64,000 nt of DNA from a virus, in the IMG/VR virus record IMGVR_UViG_3300023184_000045, positions 32,001-96,000 of that record; one strand, 5' to 3'. Positions within the stretch are counted from its first letter, which is position 1, and each line of letters opens with the position of its first letter. Positions 30,044-53,765 of this stretch are shown piece by piece. A program made the translations under genes and the position numbers. A model generated the notes under the pieces. The model was given only the letters and a program-made list of their open reading frames with translations. It did not search any database and was not told where the DNA came from.

Positions 30044-32950
30044 TTAGTGTGGTATATCTTTGAGTGCGCAGATTCTTAGGCCTGTGTTGTATGGTAAGTT
30101 AGAAGGCATTGCTCTGTAAACACGCGGCGTGCTTTCGTTATATACCCCAGATCCATTTGGTTTTTGTAATACTACATCATTACCACCTGCGCAAACATCT
30201 GCCGAAGTTTGCCCAACCATATCCAATTCTTCAGAATACCTAAATCTAGGTGTTGTTAAATTATGTAAGAATGATATTAGATATGTATTTGTCTCAGTTA
30301 GTGCAATTTGATTTGTTGTATTTAATATTGCATAACTATTAATAGTATGTGAATCTGCTGGTATTCTATACGCTGACAACATATTACTTTGCATCCATGC
30401 AGTACCAGCAGTAGCATCGCTTGCAGCACCTAGGGCGGCAAGTTGTTGATAACCTGGCAGGGATGCTGAACCCGACCCAATATATGCTATCATCGACCTA
30501 GGGTCAATTGTATCTCTGTAAGCGTCAGGGTCGCCTTGTTGCGGGTGTAAGATATCTTCTTCACGTACAACAAATTTCCAATATTTATATCCAACACTAT
30601 TAACGCAAAATACCGGGCATCTTCCTTTAGTTAAAGTTTTTCCAGTGTATCGGTTAACCGGCCGTTGTACTAAAAACCAATTAAAGAAATTATCTTTATC
30701 GGTAACACTTCTAACTGAAGTTTTTTGTATTACGCTCCAATTGCCTTCCCATACACCAAAAAATAGTCCTCTATTTGTTACAGTCATTGTGTAATTTAAC
30801 GGATATATTTCAGGGGATCCAGCAACACGAGCTTCTCTATTTAAAAATCCTTCGGCTGTTTTGTCTTTGTCAGGTGCAATCATACTACCACTATAACCCG
30901 GCGTCTGATGTGGAACATTGTTTGATCCATTTGAACCACCAAAGAATACATACTTTGTTGGTTGGGAGCCCATCATCCCAGCGCGGTCAATAGGATATTG
31001 GCCTGCAGAATTAAATATATTACTAATACCACCGTCATCTTGCAATTGCAACGGTGTACCAGCATAACAGTTTAAAGTCTGCGCTCCTACACCTACTTTG
31101 TTGTACACGCTTGTGTTGCTTACAACTTCAAATGCCAGGCGCCATGGTTGTCTATACGATTCGGGAAAACTAAATTCCAATAGGTCGTGCATCGTTAATG
31201 ATGCTTGACTATCTAATCGCACGTTGGCTTTGAGATTGTTTAAATTACTTAGATTGTCGTTTACGCTAACAACAGTGCCAATTAGCACCGGGTCACCGGC
31301 GCCTAGTAGCGTTACATTTTGCCCTTCGTAGATGATTCCTCGTTTGGTAGTGGCACTATTAGATAACTGATCTACTTCAATGTACACATTACTAGAAGTA
31401 CTTGCAGTTATGTTACCAGTAACTACGCGGCTGCTATTCAATGGATCGGTTCCACCATTAGCCTCTATAATTATTAAAAACCCAGCTGCTGTTATATCGT
31501 CGGTATCTTTTGCTTTTGCTCCGGCACCTCTAACTACAATTTTGTCATCTTGGTTAATAGTAATCTCATTACTGACTCCAAACCAAGTATAAGTTGACGA
31601 ATGTTGTTTCCAATTCTTTGCGCCGGGGCCGCTCCATTCTACAATTCCGTCAACCACCAGAATAGGATTAATACTAGTAATAGTAGTGCCAGGAGGAATA
31701 ATACTTGATGGATTAGATTCCGTTGGTTCAAGTAAAATTTCTTGACCAATAAAAAATCCTGTACCGGGTACACCACTAGTAGCATCGGTATACAGCACAT
31801 TTGCCCAAAAACCATCTCTAGGCCATAAATCAATTGATCCGTTGGCTCCGTGGGCATTTTGCCAGGTCAGGCCTGCGCCTTCAGGCTGCGCCACCGGGTC
31901 CAGGCCTGTTACTCCAATTGACAAGTATGCTGCTTCGGTATAGGGGTTTATAGTGGGGTTTATAGTAGTAGACAGTTTCCCGCCATGCTGAGAATAACTT
32001 GGCTTACTAATTGCCACCGTGCCGTTGTCAGTAACATCATTATACCCAGGATCCGCCAATGGCTGTGCAATTATATCTACAGTTGGTGCATCTGTAGATC
32101 TTGCTGGTACAGTTCCTGTGCTTTGACATAAAAATGTTCTTGTATTAGCAGTAAATGTTGGTGTTGTATTTGTAGAACTCAACCCATTTACATCCACTTT
32201 TGGCCATGTTAATTCAATTATATCAGTAGGAGTCACCGGAAAGTTAGTACCTCTTCTAGGCAACAAATACCAATTATTAGCTTTAATATTGTAGTCAGAG
32301 AAACCAGGCGTCCAGTCTTTTGTCATTCTAACTGACGTAATTGATCCGTACGGGGTAACTGATGATACAACTACGCGAGGAGCCGGTACATCTAATAATT
32401 TTAATTTTGGTGGGGTTCCTGCCGAGCCAGGATCATATCCTACGTCATACACAGGGTCGGTGTCGGTGTAATAAATTGTGTCGTTTATATTCAATCCCGG
32501 ACGTAGTGCAGTAAATACAGTTCCAATTACATTTGATGGCGAACCTATCTTAGTAAAATCAGCATTGCTTCCGCCGCTATTTGTACCAATGCTCACAATT
32601 TGATATGCATGCCCGTGCAGCCACGGATCACCGTTGGGAAATACCGCATCCCCTTGTGGGGATCCAGTTGCAAAAGCCGGCACGCTAATTTCTAATACGT
32701 CACCAACTTTGTACCCAACACCACCTCTAACTATTTTTAAATCTCTTAGAGTGGGACTTGCAGAATCAAGATACAAAATTGAATTTCCAACTTCGTCAGT
32801 TGCAGACACATGTTTTTTGTCAAACCCGTGTTCGTTAATCAAAGTGCCTACCGCATCACCTACTAATTCTGCCATATTAGTAAAACCAATTACTTCAGTT
32901 GCAAAAAAGTCTTGATCTGCGTATTCTTTTGTGTAAACTATTGTTGCCAT
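30044..32950 (-). CDS. Virion structural protein (paralog of 28588-30024, with a large internal insertion)
   Basis: Same conserved motifs; about 500 extra residues after the N-terminal GFTxxxE segment; TAAATA at 33005-33010. Confidence 0.7.
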   Translation of the reverse strand: MATIVYTKEYADQDFFATEVIGFTNMAELVGDAVGTLINEHGFDKKHVSATDEVGNSILYLDSASPTLRDLKIVRGGVGYKVGDVLEISVPAFATGSPQGDAVFPNGDPWLHGHAYQIVSIGTNSGGSNADFTKIGSPSNVIGTVFTALRPGLNINDTIYYTDTDPVYDVGYDPGSAGTPPKLKLLDVPAPRVVVSSVTPYGSITSVRMTKDWTPGFSDYNIKANNWYLLPRRGTNFPVTPTDIIELTWPKVDVNGLSSTNTTPTFTANTRTFLCQSTGTVPARSTDAPTVDIIAQPLADPGYNDVTDNGTVAISKPSYSQHGGKLSTTINPTINPYTEAAYLSIGVTGLDPVAQPEGAGLTWQNAHGANGSIDLWPRDGFWANVLYTDATSGVPGTGFFIGQEILLEPTESNPSSIIPPGTTITSINPILVVDGIVEWSGPGAKNWKQHSSTYTWFGVSNEITINQDDKIVVRGAGAKAKDTDDITAAGFLIIIEANGGTDPLNSSRVVTGNITASTSSNVYIEVDQLSNSATTKRGIIYEGQNVTLLGAGDPVLIGTVVSVNDNLSNLNNLKANVRLDSQASLTMHDLLEFSFPESYRQPWRLAFEVVSNTSVYNKVGVGAQTLNCYAGTPLQLQDDGGISNIFNSAGQYPIDRAGMMGSQPTKYVFFGGSNGSNNVPHQTPGYSGSMIAPDKDKTAEGFLNREARVAGSPEIYPLNYTMTVTNRGLFFGVWEGNWSVIQKTSVRSVTDKDNFFNWFLVQRPVNRYTGKTLTKGRCPVFCVNSVGYKYWKFVVREEDILHPQQGDPDAYRDTIDPRSMIAYIGSGSASLPGYQQLAALGAASDATAGTAWMQSNMLSAYRIPADSHTINSYAILNTTNQIALTETNTYLISFLHNLTTPRFRYSEELDMVGQTSADVCAGGNDVVLQKPNGSGVYNESTPRVYRAMPSNLPYNTGLRICALKDIPH

Positions 32951-36344: not shown

Positions 36345-37355
36345 TTAAGCGTTTGATATTTTGATGTTAACATCGGCTGCAAAGTATGGTTGATTGTCAT
36401 ATACTTTAGTACCGCTAGTACCATTTGCAGTCCATGCTACTGAACTATTACTTGCAAATTGATGACTAGCACCGGTACCACGAGTCACTCGTGCTTGATG
36501 ATTTGACAACTTTGTAATGTAATATTGATTGCCAGCAGTATCAGTTGCTGTGATAGAAGCTTCGCCAGCTGTAATTACAGCTGAATCTTTCAACTTGACA
36601 ATACCAGTTCTTGTGCCATCTGTTACTTTATAACGACGTCCAGAAACTTGTCTGATTACATCAACTGTGGTTGCCGAACCACCAGTTAAGTATGCTGTCA
36701 TAGTAATTGCATTCTCGTTTTGACCAACTACAGCCGATGATCCCATTACTGCATCACCAGTAACCGATTGGCTAAATGATACAGCCGCATCGGTTGGATC
36801 GGTATATCCAGAACCGTTGTTAATCATCAACACTGATTTGGCACGATAACGCAATGTTAATGTTGCGCCAGTGGCTGTACTTGCTGAGCCGTCGGCGTGT
36901 GTTACTGTGGTTGCTTGTGCTCCAGTTGCTAAAGCACCCGATGCATACAAGAATGTACCACGGCTCAATGGTGTTACAGCAGTAACATCGTCGCCGCCGG
37001 TTCCACCAATTGTATCAACTGTAAAAGTTGCTGTGCCGGCGGAAGTAGTAACTGTTAGAATATCACCGGCTACGTATCCAGCCATTGTACCGCCAATGGC
37101 AGTTGCACTTTCAACTTCAGATGTAACACTACCAGTTGCACGTACAGCACCTAGTGCTAACTTGTCTGGATCACTGAATGTAGTCGATGGTCGTACTGTA
37201 TACGCACCCAGGGCAGTTAATGTTACACTAGCAATCTGATTACCACCAAGACCGTCATCGCCTTGATTTGCAGAATTATGTGCGTTTGTACTTTCGGCAC
37301 CATTAGCGCCGATGTTGCGATTACCAAAATATTTTTTATTTAAAGGACGTCCCAT
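36345..37355 (-). CDS. Probable abundant virion protein (MGRPLNKKYFG N-terminus), function unknown
   Basis: Thr/Ala/Gly-rich beta-type protein with a strong SD (AAGGAGA), its own late promoter, a structured leader and a terminator. Confidence 0.7.
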   Translation of the reverse strand: MGRPLNKKYFGNRNIGANGAESTNAHNSANQGDDGLGGNQIASVTLTALGAYTVRPSTTFSDPDKLALGAVRATGSVTSEVESATAIGGTMAGYVAGDILTVTTSAGTATFTVDTIGGTGGDDVTAVTPLSRGTFLYASGALATGAQATTVTHADGSASTATGATLTLRYRAKSVLMINNGSGYTDPTDAAVSFSQSVTGDAVMGSSAVVGQNENAITMTAYLTGGSATTVDVIRQVSGRRYKVTDGTRTGIVKLKDSAVITAGEASITATDTAGNQYYITKLSNHQARVTRGTGASHQFASNSSVAWTANGTSGTKVYDNQPYFAADVNIKISNA

Positions 37356-37450
37356 TTTATTTTCTCCTTAAGAATTTATGGCGTTCTATGCCATACGCGG
37401 TTGGATTTCCGCATAAAACTTGCCCTATGCAAGTCGTACTGTCTATTTAT
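37356..37450 (-). promoter_or_regulatory. Late promoter (ATAAATA, 37444-37450) followed by a structured 5' leader: three hairpins and a possible pseudoknot ahead of the SD
   Basis: Stems acttgc/gcaagt (37418-37434), gcgg/ccgc (37397-37412) and tatggc/gccata (37377-37395). G-U extensions form only on the minus strand. Confidence 0.6.
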
Positions 37451-42593: not shown

Positions 42594-42691
42594 AGGAATC
42601 TCCTTGTAATTATGTATTCGCTTAATGATATTTACATAATATTACAATATTATGCATTAAATGGTGGTTTTTTGAATGATTTCAACTATTT

Positions 42692-42919
42692 TTACATAGG
42701 TGGCACGCCAGTTGCTGGCGGCTTGAATTGTTTTGCTACATCTTCAACTTCTTTTTGACGTTCAAATGTACGCAGGTCATTCATAATTCTGAGTCGTTTA
42801 ATCTGCATTAAAGTAAGCCTGCTTTTGCGGGTGTCAGTCATCTTTTTGATGCTATTATCATCATTTTCCGAACTGTAACCTTCGGCCCGATTAGTACTAA
42901 AAAATTCAGTTATAAACAT
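42692..42919 (-). CDS. Small conserved head-module protein
   Basis: 75 aa containing DTRKSRLTLMQIKRLRIMND; TAAATA (42926-42931) lies 6 nt upstream of the ATG. Confidence 0.65.
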   Translation of the reverse strand: MFITEFFSTNRAEGYSSENDDNSIKKMTDTRKSRLTLMQIKRLRIMNDLRTFERQKEVEDVAKQFKPPATGVPPM

Positions 42920-42945
42920 ATAGAATATTTACCAAAAATAACAAA

Positions 42946-44691
42946 TTACATTACGCCTGGCATGTTGGGCATTGGTGCTCCGCCGCCAGGCATTGGTGCT
43001 GCTCCTACACCAGGTGCTCCAGGCATGCTGCCGGCTGCTCCAGGCATACCACCTTCCATGCCAGGCATGGCGCCGTCCAGTCCAGGTAGTGCATTTGCTG
43101 TATCCAAATCGCCGCTGATTGCACCGGGTGTAATACCCACACTGCGCAATCCAACTGCGTTTTCGTTATCTGCTGTTTTGGTTTCGCCTTGCTCTTCAAG
43201 CCAGGCTTGTTCGTTTTCGCTCATTTCTTGCTCAGTTAGTCCTAAGTAGCGTTTCATTAAGAAACGTTTGCTAAAGTAAGGAAACTGCTCTAGCTGCCCG
43301 TAAGTATTAATACGTGCTGCATCCACTTCAGTTTGGCGATATTGTGCAAAGTTTTGCGGCTCATTGAGCTCTAATGTAAACAATTGACTGTCTATGTTAA
43401 TGCCTCTCCAACGCATGAACATTTTAAATTCTTTGTCTAACGTGCCAGAAATCATGTTCTGTAGTCTGATACAATAGCGGTTAAATCTCCACTCTTGAAT
43501 TAGTGCAGTACCAACACGCCCATCTGTAATAGATGCAGTGCCGTCGTCTGCGCCTGTGGGCAAATAGCTGCTGGGAATACGTAGTCCACGGAACAACTTG
43601 TTGGTAAAGAAACGCAAGTCTGTGATCTCGCCCAAGTTCTGTCCGCCTTGCAATACTTCAACTTTGCTGCCGCGACCTTCTGCTGTTTGCGGAAAGAAGA
43701 AGTCTTCGTTGGTAGAAATAGGATTGTATGTAGCATCCATCATGTTGGCGCCGCCGCCAGTTTGACTAGGAATACGACGCTGTTGGATTTCGTTTTTAAC
43801 ACGCTCAACAAAGGCCATGGCCATGTGGCTGGGCATGTTGCCAACGTCTACGTAAAATGCTCTGCGCTCTGGCGCACGTTGCACACGATAGATAATAATA
43901 GCATCTTCAATTAGTTCTTTTTGCTTGAACACCTTAAAGATATTTTCCAACACGCTGTTACCAAAAGGCCAGTTAATGTCCAAGCCTTCTGTTAGGCTCA
44001 AATGCACTATGTGTTCAGCATTGATTGCAGCTTCGTTCTGTGCATTGGTAAATCTACTACCGCCAGAAAATGGGGTTGCTGGTTGCACATAAGATCCATT
44101 CGATGCGCCCGACTGCGGGTGGCTCATGTATGCATCTGTTGTGCTAACTGCTGTCACAGTTAGATTTTTAAAGTTGGGCTGTATTTCTCTAAGCACGTAT
44201 TGCTCAGGTTCTTTGCCTTCGGACTCATTGACAATGACCTTGACAACTTTATTCATTTCAACCCACATGAGTTTAAATGTTTCTGGATCACGTACAAAAA
44301 CTTGATCTCCATACTTTAACGTATTTCTAACTATTTTAAAGATACGTTTGTTTAATTCGTTCAAGGTAACCCACTGCTGTAACTGTTCCTTGATCAAGTC
44401 AACTTCAGTATCAGTTGGTTTTTCTTTGTAATTCAATTTAAATGGTAAGCTGGTTGTTTCATCAGGTTGGCTGCTGAATTCAGCAAGAATATCCAATGCT
44501 GCGTTGATTTCCGAGTCTTGATCCATCTGCTCATATTGATTGTAACGCTCAATACGGTTGGGATGACCAACATAAACTTCGGGCAAGTTACTTTGATAAT
44601 TTCTATAGCTAGGGCTGCCTTGGGCCGCGCCGTTAGGAACGGGACTGAGCATAGCAGGGTTAGGGGATTTAAAGTATTTTTTCCAGGCCAT
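42946..44691 (-). CDS. g20: Portal protein (T4 gp20 family)
   Basis: YEQMDQDSEINAALD, LIEDAIIIYRVQRAPERRAFYVDVGNMP, EDFFFPQTAEGRGSKVEVLQGGQNLGEITDLRFF; TAAATA at 44716-44721. Confidence 0.97.
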   Translation of the reverse strand: MAWKKYFKSPNPAMLSPVPNGAAQGSPSYRNYQSNLPEVYVGHPNRIERYNQYEQMDQDSEINAALDILAEFSSQPDETTSLPFKLNYKEKPTDTEVDLIKEQLQQWVTLNELNKRIFKIVRNTLKYGDQVFVRDPETFKLMWVEMNKVVKVIVNESEGKEPEQYVLREIQPNFKNLTVTAVSTTDAYMSHPQSGASNGSYVQPATPFSGGSRFTNAQNEAAINAEHIVHLSLTEGLDINWPFGNSVLENIFKVFKQKELIEDAIIIYRVQRAPERRAFYVDVGNMPSHMAMAFVERVKNEIQQRRIPSQTGGGANMMDATYNPISTNEDFFFPQTAEGRGSKVEVLQGGQNLGEITDLRFFTNKLFRGLRIPSSYLPTGADDGTASITDGRVGTALIQEWRFNRYCIRLQNMISGTLDKEFKMFMRWRGINIDSQLFTLELNEPQNFAQYRQTEVDAARINTYGQLEQFPYFSKRFLMKRYLGLTEQEMSENEQAWLEEQGETKTADNENAVGLRSVGITPGAISGDLDTANALPGLDGAMPGMEGGMPGAAGSMPGAPGVGAAPMPGGGAPMPNMPGVM

Positions 44692-47700: not shown

Positions 47701-47757
47701 AGCTTCGGCTAATGCATCGCCTATGCCTGTATAATCGTCGCGATCTAATGCTGCCAT
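44746..47757 (-). CDS. Tail tape measure protein
   Basis: 1,003-aa Ala/Gly-rich helical protein with a hydrophobic GAxxGA tract, an LLVHAGERVLNP motif and a 63-nt internal duplication at 45227/45290; lies beside the chaperone-like gene. Confidence 0.75.
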   Translation of the reverse strand: MAALDRDDYTGIGDALAEALSRNITSRAGEEDAKRQDEVRRSLLNFSSELKKSTASQKLFKSVLTNTAQTYADVTDKLEELEKAIGQASDAHDIVTRDLLIQEKARVREAAASHNAQAALGNFTLGAIKATVQMGQAFAGGTGQFVKGLQSGASSVDLAAGAMSAAVDVAGAGMSAASGAATGLGSVLQHSTNPKLRGLGLAATVAGTALGFIGQEGSKLAKFGIEVLSTEVKKSVEAFQKTNTAGALFADGVQGMRTASTAAGLTVNQFSDVISRQSGNLSQLGMGVGEGSRRIGGVLARGGKEMQTQLLKLGFGFEEQADLVAETMQRMKGVSGKPFLASDTQVAEQTKKYAENLRTIAALTGEDAKKRIEAVAAENQILAFQQEMSRRSPEQRAQLETAMAAMTAQDAKNLRDRVIYGQVVNKDGAIAEAQFAGMREKGETLKRLLDDNNLNVTTVNQTTIKFRDTINNSVLGSKDLALAAYNGVDSVSGVAKAGLDALNLNGKVTADAVGNVAAQIKNQQVTTDPLTESLTKATVAAQDMALKLQKAMDPLIAGYSKVTEKMLEEISKTFSDIADQIAKIKPGEASAKAEGMWDKTLRVATAAASGAVTGASIGAPALATASSFALPVVGTVGGGVVGAVGGGVVGALIAGITEFFSSPKNTRLDGTGKHYGAAVEPSTRVLLVHAGERVLNPKETAEYNAGLIATPTVSITADTNTNTQTQTPMKDFIDSLTTTGTMLQNSVLGAASKLSDVLEKDVSIKVESTMPPGLDNLVPQFSNMLTGFGSDIKSIITGFAGQKSESDPESIKSLFTQFIDTANKTAFDPGAIKSLFTQFTDTANNMISNLSTSLTTDQDKNNDTTSQQIQRAIEETTMFGGIVSNTLAIQNATNKDFADAVNSNLKSIGQAQQQNLTNSELSNTYTRLLNAITESNKVQAVPGPKEVKSEQPTQTANMDQSKLYDVLTKQLDSMQEHMTKTDNLISLMSENKDYTRSLLQNSY

Positions 47758-47780
47758 TTATTTCTTCCAAAAAATATGTA

Positions 47781-47810
47781 TATAAATACAAATGCTCACT
47801 TATATTTATA
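47781..47810. promoter_or_regulatory. Two face-to-face full-consensus late promoters TATAAATA (+ 47781-47788; - 47803-47810)
   Basis: Exact T4 late consensus on both strands in the 65-nt gap between the tape measure and gp26-like genes. Confidence 0.75.
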
Positions 47811-47822
47811 GGATTTCAAATA

Positions 47823-48671
47823 ATGGAAAATCAACGCAAAAACCCACTTGCTGGGCATTTCAGACAGCCTGCCATTTACTTAAATTTGCCTAGTAAAGGC
47901 CGGTGGTGGGGTGAAAATGCCCTTGATATGCCAGCAAATCAAGAAATACCAATTTACCCAATGAGTACCAAAGATGAAATTATACTCAGAACACCAGACG
48001 CACTGCTAAATGGACAAGGAATTGTAGATGTAATACACAGTTGCTGCCCAAACATACTAGACGCCTGGAAGATGCCTAGCATTGACACAGATGCTATTTT
48101 GATAGCAATACGCATTGCCACCTACGGCAATCAAATGAATTTTGACAGTAAATGCGCACACTGCGGCGAAGAAAACACGCACAGCGTTGATTTGAGCATG
48201 CCGCTAGCCAGCTTAAAATGCCCGGACTATTCTAGTTTATTAGAATATAAAGACTTAAAAATACGCTTTAAACCACAGTTTTACTTTACAGCCAATAAGT
48301 CAAACATGCTAGAATTTGAAGAACAAAAGATATTAAGTCTATTAAATTCTGCCGATATGGACCCAGACGAAAAAGCTGCACAATTATCTAAGAGTTTAGA
48401 TAAGATGTTTGATTATGGCCTGCAGGCATGCACTCAAAGTACAGACTATATTGAACTAGCAGACGGAACAAGGGTCGACGACTCAGAGTTTATATTTGAA
48501 TTTTATAAAAATGCCGAAAGTGAAGTGGTAAGACTGCTGCAAGCCAAAGTCACAGACTTGTCTAAACAGGCTCGCCCAGCAGGTATAACGCTGGCCTGTC
48601 AAGAATGTCATAAACCTTATGAAATTGAACTAGCATTCGATTACGCAAATTTTTTCGGCAGAGGCTTTTAA
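47823..48671 (+). CDS. g26: Baseplate hub/tail assembly chaperone (T4 gp26-like)
   Basis: NPLxxxFRQPAIYLNLPSKGRWW, PIYPMxxKDEIILRTPDALLNG, DxDAILIAIRIATYG, CxxC twice, ending NFFGRGF. The ATG at 47823 is preferred over the 47712 start in the ORF track. Confidence 0.8.
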   Translation: MENQRKNPLAGHFRQPAIYLNLPSKGRWWGENALDMPANQEIPIYPMSTKDEIILRTPDALLNGQGIVDVIHSCCPNILDAWKMPSIDTDAILIAIRIATYGNQMNFDSKCAHCGEENTHSVDLSMPLASLKCPDYSSLLEYKDLKIRFKPQFYFTANKSNMLEFEEQKILSLLNSADMDPDEKAAQLSKSLDKMFDYGLQACTQSTDYIELADGTRVDDSEFIFEFYKNAESEVVRLLQAKVTDLSKQARPAGITLACQECHKPYEIELAFDYANFFGRGF

Positions 48672-48889
48672 CTCTAACCACGGACGCAGAGATCATCAAG
48701 TTCCTAGAGGGACACGATCGAGAAGTAAAAGCCTTAAAAGAAGAAGTAATGCGTATGTGTTGGTATATGCGTGGTGGCATTACATACCCAGAACTCATGG
48801 AAATGAGCGCTAATGAAAGACTCATTATTGGGGAAATCATTAAGAGTAATTTAGAAACTACTAAAGAAACACGAATGCCTTTCTTCTGA
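48653..48889 (+). CDS. -1-frame extension of gp26-like gene (gp51/tail-chaperone T-like; 78 codons; absent from the ORF track)
   Basis: Open from the slippery T TTT TTC (48650-48656): FRQRLLTLTTDAEIIKFLEGHDREVKALKEEVMRMCWYMRGGITYPELMEMSANERLIIGEIIKSNLETTKETRMPFF. The first in-frame ATG is at 48749. Confidence 0.7.
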   Translation, partial: FRQRLLTLTTDAEIIKFLEGHDREVKALKEEVMRMCWYMRGGITYPELMEMSANERLIIGEIIKSNLETTKETRMPFF

Positions 48890-49347
48890 AGTTCTTTATC
48901 TGTTCGAGACTTGCAATGCAAGTCTATTGCTATCGCTATCGCTCAGCAATATTTTTCCTTCTAATCTAATGAACTGTTTTAATACTTCTAATTCAGATAT
49001 ATTATCTAGATGTAGATCACAATTCGGCCCAGCAGGCCAAAATTGTGATCGAGACATTATCTGAGTGCCTTCAACACACTAACTATAAGAGATTGCCTGC
49101 TGGTGCAAACACGGAGGCGGTCATCCTGTACCCCCTACTCTAGATTCGATTATGACGGTACACTATACAATAACTAGTTAGCGCCATTGTTAGTGCTTGG
49201 GTTGTATATTTTTTACAGAGCCCAGATCATTTAATACCTTACGTTGGTATCTTACCGTGCAGCTCCTAAGTCCGCGGGTGTTATTTCACACACACTCAAT
49301 AGGGATCGAGGTACCTCGATCAAACAACGCTGCTATAATAATTTGCC
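48890..49347 (-). ncRNA. Candidate large structured non-coding RNA (or RNA-primed origin)
   Basis: About 460 nt with no credible ORF, the largest intergenic tract in the window. At least 7 stems, including 48907-48925, 48925-48951, 48993-49064 and the palindrome 49304-49321. Confidence 0.45.
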
Positions 49348-49869
49348 TTATTGGCTGGATTCACATATTTGTTCTATTGTTTTGGAATTTGTAGTCCAGA
49401 AAGATTCAAAGTCTTGAATTATCCATGTGCCATAATTGGGAGAGATATACGTGGAGTAGTTGGGATTTAGTGTTAGACTTGGTGTCGGTTGGCAGGCAAT
49501 ATAAGTGCCCTTGCGATTAAATTTCATAAGCAATACATTAAAGTCGCCTGTGTTGGCCACTTCTAATAATTGCCCAATCCATTTTTCTAGTATAGGTATT
49601 GTACCTTGATAAAGTTGATGGAATGGAAAATCGGCATAACTCTTTGCTTCCGCATTGAAATATTTCCAAGATTCCGGAGGAACAATATCTCCTTTGAAGC
49701 TTTTAACTTGACTTGCATCAAGACTTGCTTTTCTAAAAGAATTTGTTCCACCAATGTACGCTCCGCTGTGTGGTGCTCTGATAAAAGAGGCATTATGCTG
49801 CTCAGATAGAAACTTGGCAACTAAACGTTCCCAGGAATTTCCTTTATTTTTGCTTTTTGATCCACTCAT
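49348..49869 (-). CDS. Holliday-junction-resolvase-like PD-(D/E)XK nuclease (Hjc type)
   Basis: KNKGNSWER...GDI...EAKSY catalytic pattern; a TAAGTA promoter variant lies at 49891-49896. Confidence 0.75.
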   Translation of the reverse strand: MSGSKSKNKGNSWERLVAKFLSEQHNASFIRAPHSGAYIGGTNSFRKASLDASQVKSFKGDIVPPESWKYFNAEAKSYADFPFHQLYQGTIPILEKWIGQLLEVANTGDFNVLLMKFNRKGTYIACQPTPSLTLNPNYSTYISPNYGTWIIQDFESFWTTNSKTIEQICESSQ

Positions 49870-50018: not shown

Positions 50019-51785
50019 CTATGAGTCTACATCGGTTCCATACGTGGTATAGCCATTGCTCTTGGTAACCCTGAGTATATTTTCAACCCTGGCAACTAAT
50101 TCATCGCGATGACTAACTAACCACACGCTCTTTTTGCCGTCCCTGCTGAGCTTTTTAAGGATAGCCAAAGAACTTTCCATTCCGCTGGAATCCAGTCCCG
50201 AATCAACCAATTCATCAACAAATAGTAGATTGACTTTCTGATATAGACTTTCCCAAACATCGCGGAATGCCCAGCTCAGACTTAAGATAAGTCTGTTGCG
50301 TTCGCCTCTGCTGAGATTGTCAAAATCTAAATCTCTACCTAGCTCAGTAATACTTACCGTTAGATCGTTTTGAAATTCCACTTGATGTGGCAAACCAATC
50401 TTTTCTAAGTAATAGCTGAGTCTAGTATTTAAATAACTCAAGTTTTGATCAATGATTTTTTTACGAATAAAACTATCTTTGTTGGTCAGCAACTTGAGCA
50501 AAAACTCTTCGTGATCTTTCATCTTGGTCAGCTGATTGATATTATCATAGCTGACTTCTTCTAGAGCAGTTTTTGTCATCTCTTCAATTTGATCACCATA
50601 GGGATCAACTTCAAGTTTCTTCTGCTCGATCTGCTGCAATAGGTTTGCCAGTGTAGCTCTGTGCTCGACAGCATCAGACTCACGATCATAGAATATATCA
50701 GGACGCGGACCTAACTCACCCAAATCTTTTAATGTTTGAGTATGTTCTAAGTATTGACCATTCGTTGCCAAAGCCTGCAACGAGGCTTCTTGTAGTGCTG
50801 TTACCTTCTCATCCAACACACTTACATGCTTTTGATCATGGAACTCTTGTCCACAAGCATAGCAAGTGTGATTTTTTAAATCACTAATTTCTTTTGTTAG
50901 TGTGTTTATTAACTTTTCTTCTTTGGCCTCATCGAGCTCGCATCGCTTGATTAAACTGTTAAGAGATTTAATCTTTTCTGCTTTCTTGTTGTAGGCTGTC
51001 AGCGAGCGGTGTGCAGCTAGTTCTGCTTCGATGTCAATTTGATTCAATTGATCGTATGCACTTTGTAACTGCTCACAGTCTGTGTTGTATTTGTTGACCC
51101 AGAGTGTTTGTCTACGTCGCAGTGCTTGAATTTGTTCTTCGATACGCTTGTTTGCATCAATAACAGCTCTGATGCGAAACTCGTCTTGCTGTATGTCGTC
51201 TTTAGTCTGTTTAATTCTTTCTTTGAGTACTTCTGCTTTTTCACTTAGCAAAGTAATACCCATCAGCTGCTCAATGATTTCTCGTTGATCGCTGGCTTTT
51301 AAACTTAGAAACGGCTCTGTGTAGGTGTTTAACGCAACAATATGTTTGAACATATTGTGGCTCATGCACAACAGTCGCTCAATGTCTTGCTGCGTTTCTC
51401 TGCTATCGCCTTGGCTTTCGTCGACAATTTGTTGTTCAACATCGGCAACATAAAATTTCATTACATTAGGTTTGCGTCCGCGTTCAATTCTATATTCAAC
51501 GCCGTCTTTTTCAAAATCGATAGTAACCATCATGCCTTTGGCATTAGTTCTATTAATCAAATTGTCTTTTTTAATATTGGTTAGTGCATTGCCATACAAA
51601 GCATAGCTAACTATATTCAATAATGCGCTTTTTCCAGTACCATTGCGGGCACCGCTATCGTCGCCGCCTAAGTCAAGATTCTCACCCAATATCAGTGTTA
51701 GATCGTTACGATCTAAATTGACACTCTGGGTAACGTTGCCAATCGACAAGAAGTTTTTTGCTGTAACAGATTTTATTTTAAGCAT
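50019..51785 (-). CDS. g46: Recombination exonuclease ATPase subunit (T4 gp46 / SbcC-Rad50 family)
   Basis: Walker A NGTGKS, zinc hook CYAC, signature LSRGE, Walker B LLFVDE, H-loop VSH. Confidence 0.96.
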   Translation of the reverse strand: MLKIKSVTAKNFLSIGNVTQSVNLDRNDLTLILGENLDLGGDDSGARNGTGKSALLNIVSYALYGNALTNIKKDNLINRTNAKGMMVTIDFEKDGVEYRIERGRKPNVMKFYVADVEQQIVDESQGDSRETQQDIERLLCMSHNMFKHIVALNTYTEPFLSLKASDQREIIEQLMGITLLSEKAEVLKERIKQTKDDIQQDEFRIRAVIDANKRIEEQIQALRRRQTLWVNKYNTDCEQLQSAYDQLNQIDIEAELAAHRSLTAYNKKAEKIKSLNSLIKRCELDEAKEEKLINTLTKEISDLKNHTCYACGQEFHDQKHVSVLDEKVTALQEASLQALATNGQYLEHTQTLKDLGELGPRPDIFYDRESDAVEHRATLANLLQQIEQKKLEVDPYGDQIEEMTKTALEEVSYDNINQLTKMKDHEEFLLKLLTNKDSFIRKKIIDQNLSYLNTRLSYYLEKIGLPHQVEFQNDLTVSITELGRDLDFDNLSRGERNRLILSLSWAFRDVWESLYQKVNLLFVDELVDSGLDSSGMESSLAILKKLSRDGKKSVWLVSHRDELVARVENILRVTKSNGYTTYGTDVDS

Positions 51786-52801
51786 TAGAGAGTTTGATAG
51801 ATTTCAAGCAACAAGTTAGTATTATAGTTTTCACTGGTAATACCTGTCAATTGATTAGATACAATTTGATCAACGCTTTGAAAAGATATGTTGCCTTGTG
51901 CAACCATGCCTTCAAGGTCTACGTTTGATTGTGGTATTAATTTAATCTCTCTGAGATGATGGCTGTTAATAAATGTTTCTTTGATAAAGCTAGCTTCTTC
52001 GTAGCTAATGTCAATATCTAAGTTAACCCTGGCATGCATATTTCTGCGTAACAACCTGTCGGAGTCATTTAAGATGCTGCTAAGATTGTAAACTCGGTAC
52101 ACGGGTTGATCGGGCCAGGCATGATACACTGGCTCTTGTCCCCATTCGAGTATCATTAGCCCGCGTTCGTCGTCGCCAGCATCGGCATAGTTATGTGGAA
52201 AGCAATTGCCAATGTAGGTAATGTTCTTTTTAGTTTGGCGTTTGTGAAAATGTCCGGTAAACACATGATCAAAGTGATTAAAGTCTTCTCTATGTACAGT
52301 GCCATGGTCAGGCATTTCTACCATAGCATTCATCATGTAACCTGGCAGTTCAAAATGCCCAAACATATATTTGGCAGCCAGCTTAGGAATACGTTTGTGG
52401 TCATCTGCAACAAGCCAAGGAGCAATAACTACATCACCCTCAATAAGCCAGTCATTGCAAATGACTACATTAGATAAATGTTTAGCCCACTCGACACTTT
52501 GTACATCGCGCTTGTCTCGGTAATACAAATCATGATTGCCGGGTATAAAGAATACCCTATCAAAATTTGCATTTAAGTGTTCTAATGCTTGTAGGCTGTA
52601 ATTAAGGGTAACAATGTTAATGCTAGCTCTATTGTTATGCCAATCGCCAAGGAACATAGCGGTTTCACAACCTTCTTCCTTGGCTTTGGCAGTAGCCCAC
52701 TTGACAAAGTTCAAACAATCATCGTTGTGTTGGCTGCTGTTTGACTTTAGCCCAAAGTGGATGTCAGTGAAAACAGCGGCTTTTTTAAAAAGATTACTCA
52801 T
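51785..52801 (-). CDS. g47: Recombination exonuclease nuclease subunit (T4 gp47 / SbcD-Mre11 family)
   Basis: Metallophosphoesterase motifs DIH, GDW, GNHD, GHFE and GHFH. Confidence 0.95.
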   Translation of the reverse strand: MSNLFKKAAVFTDIHFGLKSNSSQHNDDCLNFVKWATAKAKEEGCETAMFLGDWHNNRASINIVTLNYSLQALEHLNANFDRVFFIPGNHDLYYRDKRDVQSVEWAKHLSNVVICNDWLIEGDVVIAPWLVADDHKRIPKLAAKYMFGHFELPGYMMNAMVEMPDHGTVHREDFNHFDHVFTGHFHKRQTKKNITYIGNCFPHNYADAGDDERGLMILEWGQEPVYHAWPDQPVYRVYNLSSILNDSDRLLRRNMHARVNLDIDISYEEASFIKETFINSHHLREIKLIPQSNVDLEGMVAQGNISFQSVDQIVSNQLTGITSENYNTNLLLEIYQTL

Positions 52802-52848: not shown

Positions 52849-53730
52849 TTAATCGTGATCGCCGTCGCTGCCACCCGAGTACCCAGATGACATACCTTGT
52901 CTAGTGTAACTTGGATTAAAGTTATTCATTTCTAAAATGTCATCGCGTAAGTTTTGATTACGTTTTTCAATATTTAACACACGAGTAAAGCTATTAGTGA
53001 TAGCGGCAGTATAATACGCAAAAGGGTTCTGCGATTTTGACTCGTCAAATTGTAGTCCAATTTGGCTGAGTTGTAACAGTGCTTGGCTTCGCATTTCGTC
53101 ATTGTATGTATATCCTCTCCAATTTGATCTTGTTGCATAGCGCTCACATAGTTTCATAAACATTAAGGCTAGCTTTTTAGTCATTGAACCGTGATCCCTA
53201 GACCACTCGCCTGTGTCTAAATTGCCCTTCCAGTGGCTTTTACCTACGCAATAGCTGGTACCTTCTGTGTCAATTTTATAGTGCTGGAATGGTGGAAAGT
53301 TACATTTGGTATATTTGATCACGGCTATTGGTACTTTGTAGTCTTCGTCGTCGTCGTACTCGGTGTGGGCAGCAGCCTCTTCATCGGCAGCGTCCTGACT
53401 CTTTTTAGTAGCAGCTTCGTTAATTGGCACATGTGCCCAGGTCATTACCCGAAAAATTACATCGGTAGTAGGGATTTCTTCGGTCGGAAGTAAAAACTCA
53501 TCTAATTTACGTTTTTCTCCTAGTGCAACAGCAGCTTCTAGCTGTAGCTTTGCTAGACGTTCTGCTCGATTTTCCTGTGCTTGCCGAATGTTATCCGTGG
53601 TGATCTGTGCTAGATCGTGGATAATCATATCATAATCGGCATAATCCGGCGATGTAAAAGTACAGTAAGTACTCTTGCTACGGTGTATCTCTTTTAAGAT
53701 ATCTTTGTTGTTTAGATAATTGTGTTTAAT
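52849..53730 (-). CDS. g55: Late-transcription sigma factor (T4 gp55-like)
   Basis: NYLNNKDILKEI, LCERYATRSNWRGYTYNDEM, FDESKSQNPFAYYTAAITNSFTRVLNIEK. The start is probably ATT at 53730 (AGGAG 7 nt upstream); the ORF track uses TTG at 53748. Confidence 0.85.
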   Translation of the reverse strand: MKHNYLNNKDILKEIHRSKSTYCTFTSPDYADYDMIIHDLAQITTDNIRQAQENRAERLAKLQLEAAVALGEKRKLDEFLLPTEEIPTTDVIFRVMTWAHVPINEAATKKSQDAADEEAAAHTEYDDDEDYKVPIAVIKYTKCNFPPFQHYKIDTEGTSYCVGKSHWKGNLDTGEWSRDHGSMTKKLALMFMKLCERYATRSNWRGYTYNDEMRSQALLQLSQIGLQFDESKSQNPFAYYTAAITNSFTRVLNIEKRNQNLRDDILEMNNFNPSYTRQGMSSGYSGGSDGDHD

Positions 53731-53765
53731 TTTTATTCTCCTGAGCAAATTACTGCGTTATTTTT

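Follow-up and report, generated by a model that had tools for sequence, protein, structure and literature searches.

Genomic Locus and Non-coding Character of the Element

The window analyzed here, a 64,000-nt stretch (positions 32,001 to 96,000) of the IMG/VR virus record IMGVR_UViG_3300023184_000045, is part of a T4-like giant phage and also encodes very large virion proteins; the whole record is a 123.5-kb viral contig with a CheckV completeness of 35%. Between two converging genes of the window lies a 458-nt element (48890-49347), at the point where a leftward gp47-gp46-nuclease block meets a rightward gp26 operon. A minus-strand gene for a PDDEXK_15 nuclease ends with its stop codon at 49348 and a small plus-strand open reading frame (ORF) ends at 48889, confirming the coordinates given for the element in the initial annotation, which had been made from the sequence alone and had called it a large non-coding gap; it is in fact the largest in the window. 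As far as conservation and structure reach, the element holds an RNA gene of ~430 nt on the minus strand, and within it are two short boxes that change in step among relatives.

Folding of the minus strand of the 458 nt gave a free energy of -138.4 kcal/mol (z -4.75), with none of 100 dinucleotide shuffles folding as well; the plus strand folded more weakly (z -2.91). No conserved ORF was found in the 458 nt, and with the minus-strand z score this bears out the dense structure in a non-coding gap that had been described. Likewise, the longest stop-free run in 141 homologues was that of shuffled sequence (median 70 codons, vs. 176 in a coding control), 65 of 69 indels among close relatives were 1 or 2 mod 3, and conservation of the element tracked its helices rather than codons. 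A decayed or unconventional protein-coding gene, for instance a dead homing-endonuclease gene, might be suspected from the homing-endonuclease-like genes that adjoin the element, but the stop-free runs, the indels and the conservation of helices leave this reading near refuted. G-U pairs, several of them invariant, are frequent on the minus strand (one position of the G-rich hairpin has 56 GU, for example). Since they would be A-C on the opposite strand, the minus strand is the functional one.

Distribution and Synteny

Relatives were gathered by a search with the nuclease protein, which yielded 80 viral contigs, and by a two-box pattern, which yielded at least 120 further contigs from a viral collection. 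The pattern, which gathered half of the loci, set no identity requirement between the boxes. Family-wide counts given below (201, 172, 155, 142, and 122) cover loci among the matches listed. By nhmmer, 172 of 201 sequences hold the element. The DNA that follows the nuclease gene remains alignable with that of the window at nuclease identities as low as ~50%, and iterated nhmmer detected the element in 56 of the 80 nuclease contigs, always on the strand of the nuclease. Gene order is fixed: gp47, gp46, (small nuclease), and the RNA are followed by the converging small ORF with gp26, and these by the portal gene. The initial annotation had suggested that related phages carry comparable tracts in this place, and the alignable homologues and fixed synteny verify this. 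A blastn search of an annotated phage collection with the element returned no match. The family thus comprises well over a hundred uncultured T4-like giant phages together with a small number of mobile islands in bacteria.

A scan of bacterial genomes produced mostly chance matches, and 13 loci were confirmed by the family profile; the short contigs of metagenome-assembled genomes binned as Flavobacteriales or Methylococcales among these are probably phage. A third class of the RNA was found in Rhodobacteraceae, namely Nereida ignava CECT 5292 (three copies), Roseicyclus, Ascidiaceihabitans, and Rhodobacter, in a form of ~625 nt that is conserved between genera. These copies lie near integrases (2-4 kb from a bacterial copy), a ParE toxin gene and a tRNA gene, and 1 of 151 sampled Rhodobacteraceae genomes has the RNA. 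Because copies occur in bacterial islands, the RNA is borne by mobile elements rather than bound to the virion or replication genes of T4-like phages. The Roseicyclus copy (locus L216, 4904-5164, plus strand, and 22-2114) is flanked by two integrase genes, a nucleotidyl-transferase gene, and a ParE toxin gene, and thus sits in an integrative island. The Nereida copies (L236, positions 1-1700; L213; L330) are on short contigs, and two of them share ~1.6 kb at 93% identity, a stretch that may be a larger repeated mobile element; the ~1 kb upstream of the 625-nt form in these copies contains no ORF of more than 100 aa and has no Rfam match.

Secondary Structure of the RNA

The RNA consists of a lineage-variable 5′ domain followed by a conserved, pseudoknotted 3′ core. 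Within the core, a pseudoknotted hairpin and the covarying helix that encloses it are followed by two boxes around a conserved hairpin; a spacer then leads to the two terminal hairpins. Coordinates of all parts are collected in Table 1.

The core pseudoknot was supported by 96.3% standard pairs in 142 non-redundant sequences, vs. 36.8% in a register shifted by one base, with base alternations of CG/UA, AU/GC/GU, and AU/UA/GC/CG. For the other core helices, a covariance model was built from 38 compact cores of other lineages only, with three helices specified by us. The model finds 94 of 100 sources, and the window matches it at 48987-49167 on the minus strand with 49.0 bits (E 3.2e-8; model positions 1-161 of 161). 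In the alignment fitted to this model, 94.6% of cells were standard pairs, compared with 71.2% after shuffling, and the covariation score was 0.608 vs. 0.174, with none of 500 shuffles reaching the observed value. Both-side changes were seen in 15 of 17 pairs, and sliding the partner strand by 1-3 columns reduced pairing to at most 57.5%. By helix, all five pairs of H3 (model helix 1) change on both sides (GC/AU/CG/UA), and its strands elsewhere read GGAGC/GCUCU, GCAAC/GUUGU, GUGGC/GCCAU, and others; H2 (model helix 2) is 98% paired with both-side changes in three of four pairs; and the central hairpin (model helix 3) is 97% paired with such changes in seven of eight. In the compact cores (alignment A3, columns 10-28; e.g., L022, 4721-4882) an alternative hairpin, CCGUY..RACGG, can also form; it uses bases of the pseudoknot 5′ strand, so that there may be two mutually exclusive folds, a possible switch.

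In the window's own clade, RNAalifold on eight close relatives predicted 108 pairs, and in 34 of these both bases have changed. In wider relatives, the place of the P1 palindrome is taken by sequences that are unrelated to it yet self-complementary. When diverse sequences were aligned with MAFFT, RNAalifold recovered almost no structure, as the variable stems misalign, and this was overcome by anchored pair counts and by the covariance model. Seven stems had been drawn in the initial annotation, of which compensatory changes confirmed five; GUACC/GGUAC and the outer segments of a 72-nt arm failed. Such changes were found in the 18-nt palindrome, GAUACC/GGUAUU, UGGG..UACA..CCCA, and both terminal hairpins (48950-48907). 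Two pairings had been proposed to compete at a G5 tract: GUCAU/AUGAC is likewise confirmed and forms the pseudoknot, but GUACC/GGUAC had no support. The 72-nt multi-segment arm was retained in its inner part, where the central hairpin (49050-49015) covaries; its outer segments (UCAGAUA/UAUCUGA and AUGU/ACAU) are not preserved even in close relatives and would bury box 1. A long-range pairing of AUCUAGAGUA with UACAUCUAGAU, invariant in close relatives, was rejected as it is replaced family-wide by helix H3.

Table 1. Features of the RNA element and neighboring genes in the window (5′ to 3′ along the RNA, then genes).
Feature	Position	Strand	Evidence or remark
Whole RNA, ~430 nt by conservation and structure	48907..49333	-	nhmmer, alignments, RNAalifold
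5′ domain D1: closing stem GCAGC/GCUGC around P1, stem CCUA/UAGG, and P2	49259..49333	-	compensatory changes in 8 close relatives
D1 hairpin P1 (18-nt palindrome)	49321-49304	-	
D1 hairpin P2	~49297-49274	-	
5′ domain D2: invariant closing stem ACGGU/ACCGU around P4, P5, and P6	49155..49258	-	
D2 hairpin P4 (GAUACC/GGUAUU)	49251-49233	-	several pairs with both-side changes
D2 hairpin P5 (UGGG..UACA..CCCA)	49224-49198	-	several pairs with both-side changes
D2 hairpin P6	49196-49161	-	several pairs with both-side changes
Pseudoknot 5′ strand GUCAU, from G of invariant CCG	49152..49156	-	pairs with AUGAC, 49124-49120
Helix H3, AGAG (49141-49138)/CUCU (49091-49088)	49088..49141	-	encloses H2 and an inserted hairpin (49111-49094)
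Hairpin H2, GGGGG/CCUCC	49113..49135	-	loop holds pseudoknot 3′ strand AUGAC (49124-49120)
Box 1, ACUC + AGAUAAU (family A-CUC-RGAURAN)	49056..49066	-	heptamer AGAUAAU at 49062-49056
Central hairpin between boxes	49015..49050	-	universal core UUGGCC/GGCCGA; clade-specific extension GAUCACAAUU/AAUUGUGAUC
Box 2, AUCU + AGAUAAU (family A-UCU-RGAURAN)	49001..49011	-	heptamer AGAUAAU at 49007-49001
A/U-rich spacer	48951..49000	-	length and sequence vary among relatives
3′ hairpin 1, conserved loop GAGCGAUAGCGAUA	48926..48950	-	GAGCGNNAGCGA in all classes; inner GC-GNRA-GC on minus strand
3′ hairpin 2, AGACUUGC/GCAAGUCU	48907..48925	-	8-bp helix, 6 pairs covary; both-side changes
PDDEXK_15 nuclease, stand-alone, 173 aa	49348..49869	-	upstream neighbor; context, no shown role in RNA function
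gp46/gp47-like SbcCD nuclease subunits	50019-52801	-	
Late sigma factor gp55	52849-53748	-	
Small conserved ORF, convergent with the RNA, downstream of gp26 gene	48749..48889	+	tblastn matches in 122 related loci; context
gp26-type baseplate hub	47712-48671	+	
T4-type portal	42946-44691	-	

Several observations were made on neighboring parts of the window. The gp26-like ORF is 319 aa long in the window and in locus L001 and 282 aa in most relatives, where a separate ORF of 61-73 aa follows it; the first ATG of the window's counterpart is at 48749, giving 46 aa. The small protein after gp26 (within 47712-48889, plus strand) is kept in 122 loci. The second-largest apparent gap (42594-42945, 352 nt), upstream of the portal gene, contains a protein-like ORF of 75 aa (42692-42919, minus strand). 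A full-length match to the cis-regulatory Rfam motif freshwater-2 (RF02980, 74.3 bits) lies at 37353-37434 on the minus strand, directly upstream of a 336-aa gene (36345-37355).

Coordinated Variation of the Twin Boxes

In each of the two boxes of the core, positions 1, 5, and 7 vary freely, and 12 variants were seen. The window carries both boxes with identical variable positions. Among 172 sequences the two boxes agreed in 163; with redundancy removed, the count was 147 of 155. When changes were counted by parsimony on a tree made from the rest of the RNA, each box alone required 61 changes and the pair jointly only 64; 134 of 142 tips were concordant between boxes, against 25 expected and a maximum of 42 in 1000 shuffles. 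The boxes have therefore been held identical through dozens of coordinated changes (~60). Sister pairs of close relatives with different boxes are few.

The sequences that surround the boxes behave differently. The preceding three bases are CUC at one box and UCU at the other in 148 of 148 sequences, and since these flanks never homogenize, gene conversion cannot explain the identity of the boxes. Correlation between the boxes reaches positions -6, -5, and +8. Differences between the two contexts are almost only transitions (CUC vs. UCU, G vs. A, C vs. U): positions -3 to -1 always differ by transitions, and positions -6, -5, 7, and +8 are identical or a transition pair in 77-97% of cases, compared with 49-69% when boxes are paired across sequences. 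Because the context differences are transitions, one partner could pair with both boxes by G-U wobble. Readings of the boxes as CsrA sites, hammerhead cores, C/D boxes, or mini-ORFs (RUG...URA) were rejected, either because variants that start with AGA fail or because the spacing varies.

Comparison with Known RNA Families

The initial annotation had stated that the element does not fit tRNA, tmRNA, RNase P, or group I/II cores, and neither ARAGORN nor Rfam produced a match; the Rfam scan of the element up to E 10 and the tRNA and tmRNA scans were all negative. No Rfam match was found to GOLLD, ROOL, OLE, raiA, or HEARO, either in a gathering-threshold scan of the window or in the element at E ≤ 10. 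Polynucleobacter-1 (RF01718) also had no match at E up to 10 in window positions 48400-49600 or in the whole 123-kb record (gathering score 37). In many relatives, however, full-length RF01718 matches (81-121 bits in seven related loci) lie directly 5′ of the twin-box core and share its strand and genomic slot. Since these matches adjoin a core that aligns with the window's core in shared synteny, the window RNA belongs to the same gene family as the Polynucleobacter-1-bearing RNAs while itself lying outside RF01718; its 5′ domain differs from Polynucleobacter-1 in sequence and in helix set. Polynucleobacter-1 was described as a candidate RNA from Burkholderiales and from fresh water and estuaries, with no function listed (Weinberg et al., 2010; PMC2864571). 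No Rfam 15 family matched what is conserved throughout the twin-box family, namely the pseudoknot, twin boxes, and 3′ hairpins.

Like the window RNA, GOLLD and ROOL are large, multi-domain, pseudoknotted RNAs of unknown function on phages and mobile elements. In GOLLD, too, the 3′ region is conserved and the 5′ region variable, and self-interacting kissing loops have been described in GOLLD and ROOL (bioRxiv 10.1101/2024.12.08.627333). The window RNA has no sequence or model similarity to them, is smaller (~430-625 nt), and in phages does not lie beside tRNA islands, and identical covarying boxes were not among the features that we found reported for GOLLD or ROOL. Two further systems offer partial parallels. 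The sponge RNAs CsrB and RsmZ present several equivalent single-stranded sites for one reader within one structured RNA, as would be the case for the proposed role of the twin boxes; however, CsrA sites need GGA and 58% of boxes start with AGA, and the twin boxes, unlike CsrB/RsmZ sites, change in step, which points to a nucleic acid as the reader. The pRNA of phage phi29 is a phage-encoded structured RNA that forms a ring on the portal and has two loops that covary across phages and are mutually complementary. The twin boxes are identical rather than complementary.

Relationship to the Upstream Nuclease

A small stand-alone nuclease gene lies directly upstream of the RNA in 108 of the 122 loci with enough flanking sequence. 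PDDEXK_15 accounts for 39 loci and an unrelated SegE-type GIY-YIG protein of ~145 aa for 69; the slot after gp46 has thus undergone non-homologous replacement at a fixed position. The GIY-YIG gene (e.g., L087, 432-860, minus strand; L082, 6363-6797, plus strand) encodes a catalytic domain without a DNA-binding extension.

The initial annotation had suggested that the RNA might form a ribonucleoprotein with the co-transcribed nuclease, and the RNA could be imagined as a guide, scaffold, or regulator of it: a stand-alone protein of 140-175 aa with no obvious DNA-binding domain is directly upstream in most loci, and the presence of two unrelated folds in one slot could tie the function of that slot to the RNA. 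We nevertheless regard such a partnership as quite unlikely. The two families swap, each occurring with both 5′ classes of the RNA and with all common box variants (only the variant GGAUAAU was seen with GIY-YIG alone). Box positions shared no information with nuclease residues beyond that of control RNA positions or the phylogenetic background, 24 of the 80 PDDEXK loci have no detectable RNA, and bacterial copies lack either family among the neighbors scanned, the copy examined having no Pfam-recognizable nuclease there. Because a slot after gp46/gp47 is expected to hold a junction-processing, junction-resolving nuclease anyway, we take the adjacency to be a matter of position, though the two may still be linked more loosely in function.

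Search for a Base-pairing Partner

Allowing for wobble, the predicted common partner of the two boxes would read about 5′-N-U-Y-A-U-C-Y-G-G-G-U-3′. When complements of the boxes were sought within the RNA or in 5-10 kb of flanking sequence, no position was enriched. The phage's own 123-kb record contains no match to a 15-nt degenerate partner; a single match with one mismatch was dropped, as it is antisense inside a gene of 1254 aa and at chance level. Four relatives, of 354 kb (100% complete), 345 kb (99%), and, less complete, 262 and 303 kb, have no exact match, and matches with one mismatch in these four genomes were as frequent as those of a reversed-pattern control. A phage tRNA was likewise rejected as the partner, since the record has no tRNA gene and an anticodon-loop reading fails, as position 37 would be a pyrimidine. 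A partner, if there is one, is not encoded in one contiguous piece in the phage genomes searched. In the three bacterial genomes that carry a copy, an excess of partner matches over the control can be explained by codon usage.

Proposed Role and Alternative Explanations

The gap is the gene for a structured non-coding RNA; we propose that this RNA acts in trans and that its twin boxes are two docking sites for one off-phage partner, and we give this reading a probability of about 0.5. A new large phage RNA had been among the hypotheses of the initial annotation, and that part has gained substance from conservation, covariation, strand-specific G-U pairs, and the absence of a coding signal. According to our model, synthesis of the RNA would follow that of the early/middle recombination-gene transcript, or the RNA would form the tail of this transcript. 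The boxes would be equivalent single-stranded sites, both base-paired by the same partner sequence, which would tolerate the transitions between their contexts through G-U wobble. This partner would lie outside the phage, in the host or in an otherwise unlinked nucleic acid, and would differ in sequence between hosts; our best guess is that the RNA serves as a bivalent decoy, sponge, or scaffold. A more specific version, in which the boxes read a host nucleic acid of ~12-16 nt with wobble and are re-tuned together as a programmable decoy or scaffold, or else engage in like-with-like quaternary pairing between RNAs, is put forward only tentatively.

Several observations weigh against the proposal. 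The argument for base pairing comes only from the substitution pattern, and no partner was found; the three bacterial genomes that carry a copy yielded only the boxes' own complement and one unconvincing site. A crude folding test placed the boxes in closed hairpin loops no more often than chance. A scan for promoters and terminators found none above chance, such that the ends of the RNA and its expression are inferred. The counts of box changes depend on a FastTree of short, diverged sequence, and the pairing percentages of the model alignment are somewhat inflated by its fit to the model structure, a bias from which the pseudoknot count and the nhmmer-based helices are free.

The RNA might instead be an RNA-only homo-oligomer like GOLLD or ROOL, with the boxes as contacts between copies. 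It is the same kind of object as these RNAs (large, ornate, borne on phages or mobile elements, and of unknown function) and shares their layout of a conserved 3′ and a variable 5′ part. Box 2 with its flank (AUCURGAU) is self-complementary, as self-kissing loops require, and an unusual A-A helix has been reported, such that like-with-like contacts do exist (bioRxiv 10.1101/2024.12.08.627333). Ordinary kissing contacts, however, predict complementary rather than identical covariation; box 1 plus flank (ACUCRGAU) lacks self-complementarity, positions 5 and 7, which covary, fall outside the palindrome, and position 1 would face an invariant U, which makes an A/G change neutral and leaves nothing to be matched. 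We therefore consider an oligomer unlikely.

Explanations that act in cis or on DNA appear less probable still. Lying between convergent operons, the element could be a transcript end, that is, a structured 3′ untranslated region or bidirectional terminator that stabilizes or insulates the nuclease and gp26 messages, and the plus-strand complement of the terminal hairpins followed by UAUUUUUCC is a plausible terminator of the gp26 operon. Yet such a role needs far less than ~400 nt that form a pseudoknot and multi-helix junctions and include identical covarying boxes. The loops of the terminal hairpins are of GNRA type when read on the minus strand, bacterial islands carry the same core amid other genes, and the scan revealed no canonical terminator; this makes a cis-acting end improbable. 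A DNA-level element, either an R-loop-primer origin as the initial annotation had suggested or a pair of direct-repeat recombination sites with identical crossover cores, strikes us as highly improbable. Site-specific recombination, as by lambda Int, Cre, or Xer, requires identical crossover regions, and the identity of two short cores would fit it, as would the integrase genes at a distance of 2-4 kb in the bacterial copy; the boxes are also followed by an AT-rich spacer. That selection acts on RNA and not on duplex DNA is shown, on the other hand, by the strand-specific G-U pairs and the compensatory changes, and no recombinase was found among the phage genes examined near the element. As to an origin, the G5 tract that had been taken as part of a primer is the 5′ strand of H2, which elsewhere reads GAGG/CCUC, GUGG/CCAC, or AGCAGG/CCUGCU. 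Because this strand covaries among relatives it is a helix strand and not a conserved run of G; the AT-rich spacer varies in length and sequence, and the GC skew has no inflection beyond the strand switch of the genes.

Implications

Large, ornate phage RNAs such as GOLLD and ROOL are among the main unexplained classes of RNA, and the twin-box RNA adds another widespread one, of which the orphan Rfam motif Polynucleobacter-1 is only an optional 5′ domain in a much larger RNA. Two short sites that have been forced to remain identical over ~60 changes provide a sharp experimental handle, and the copies in the culturable N. ignava CECT 5292 make tests feasible without the uncultured phages. If the proposed role is true, a programmable bivalent RNA decoy or scaffold would represent a type of phage-host interface that is so far undescribed.
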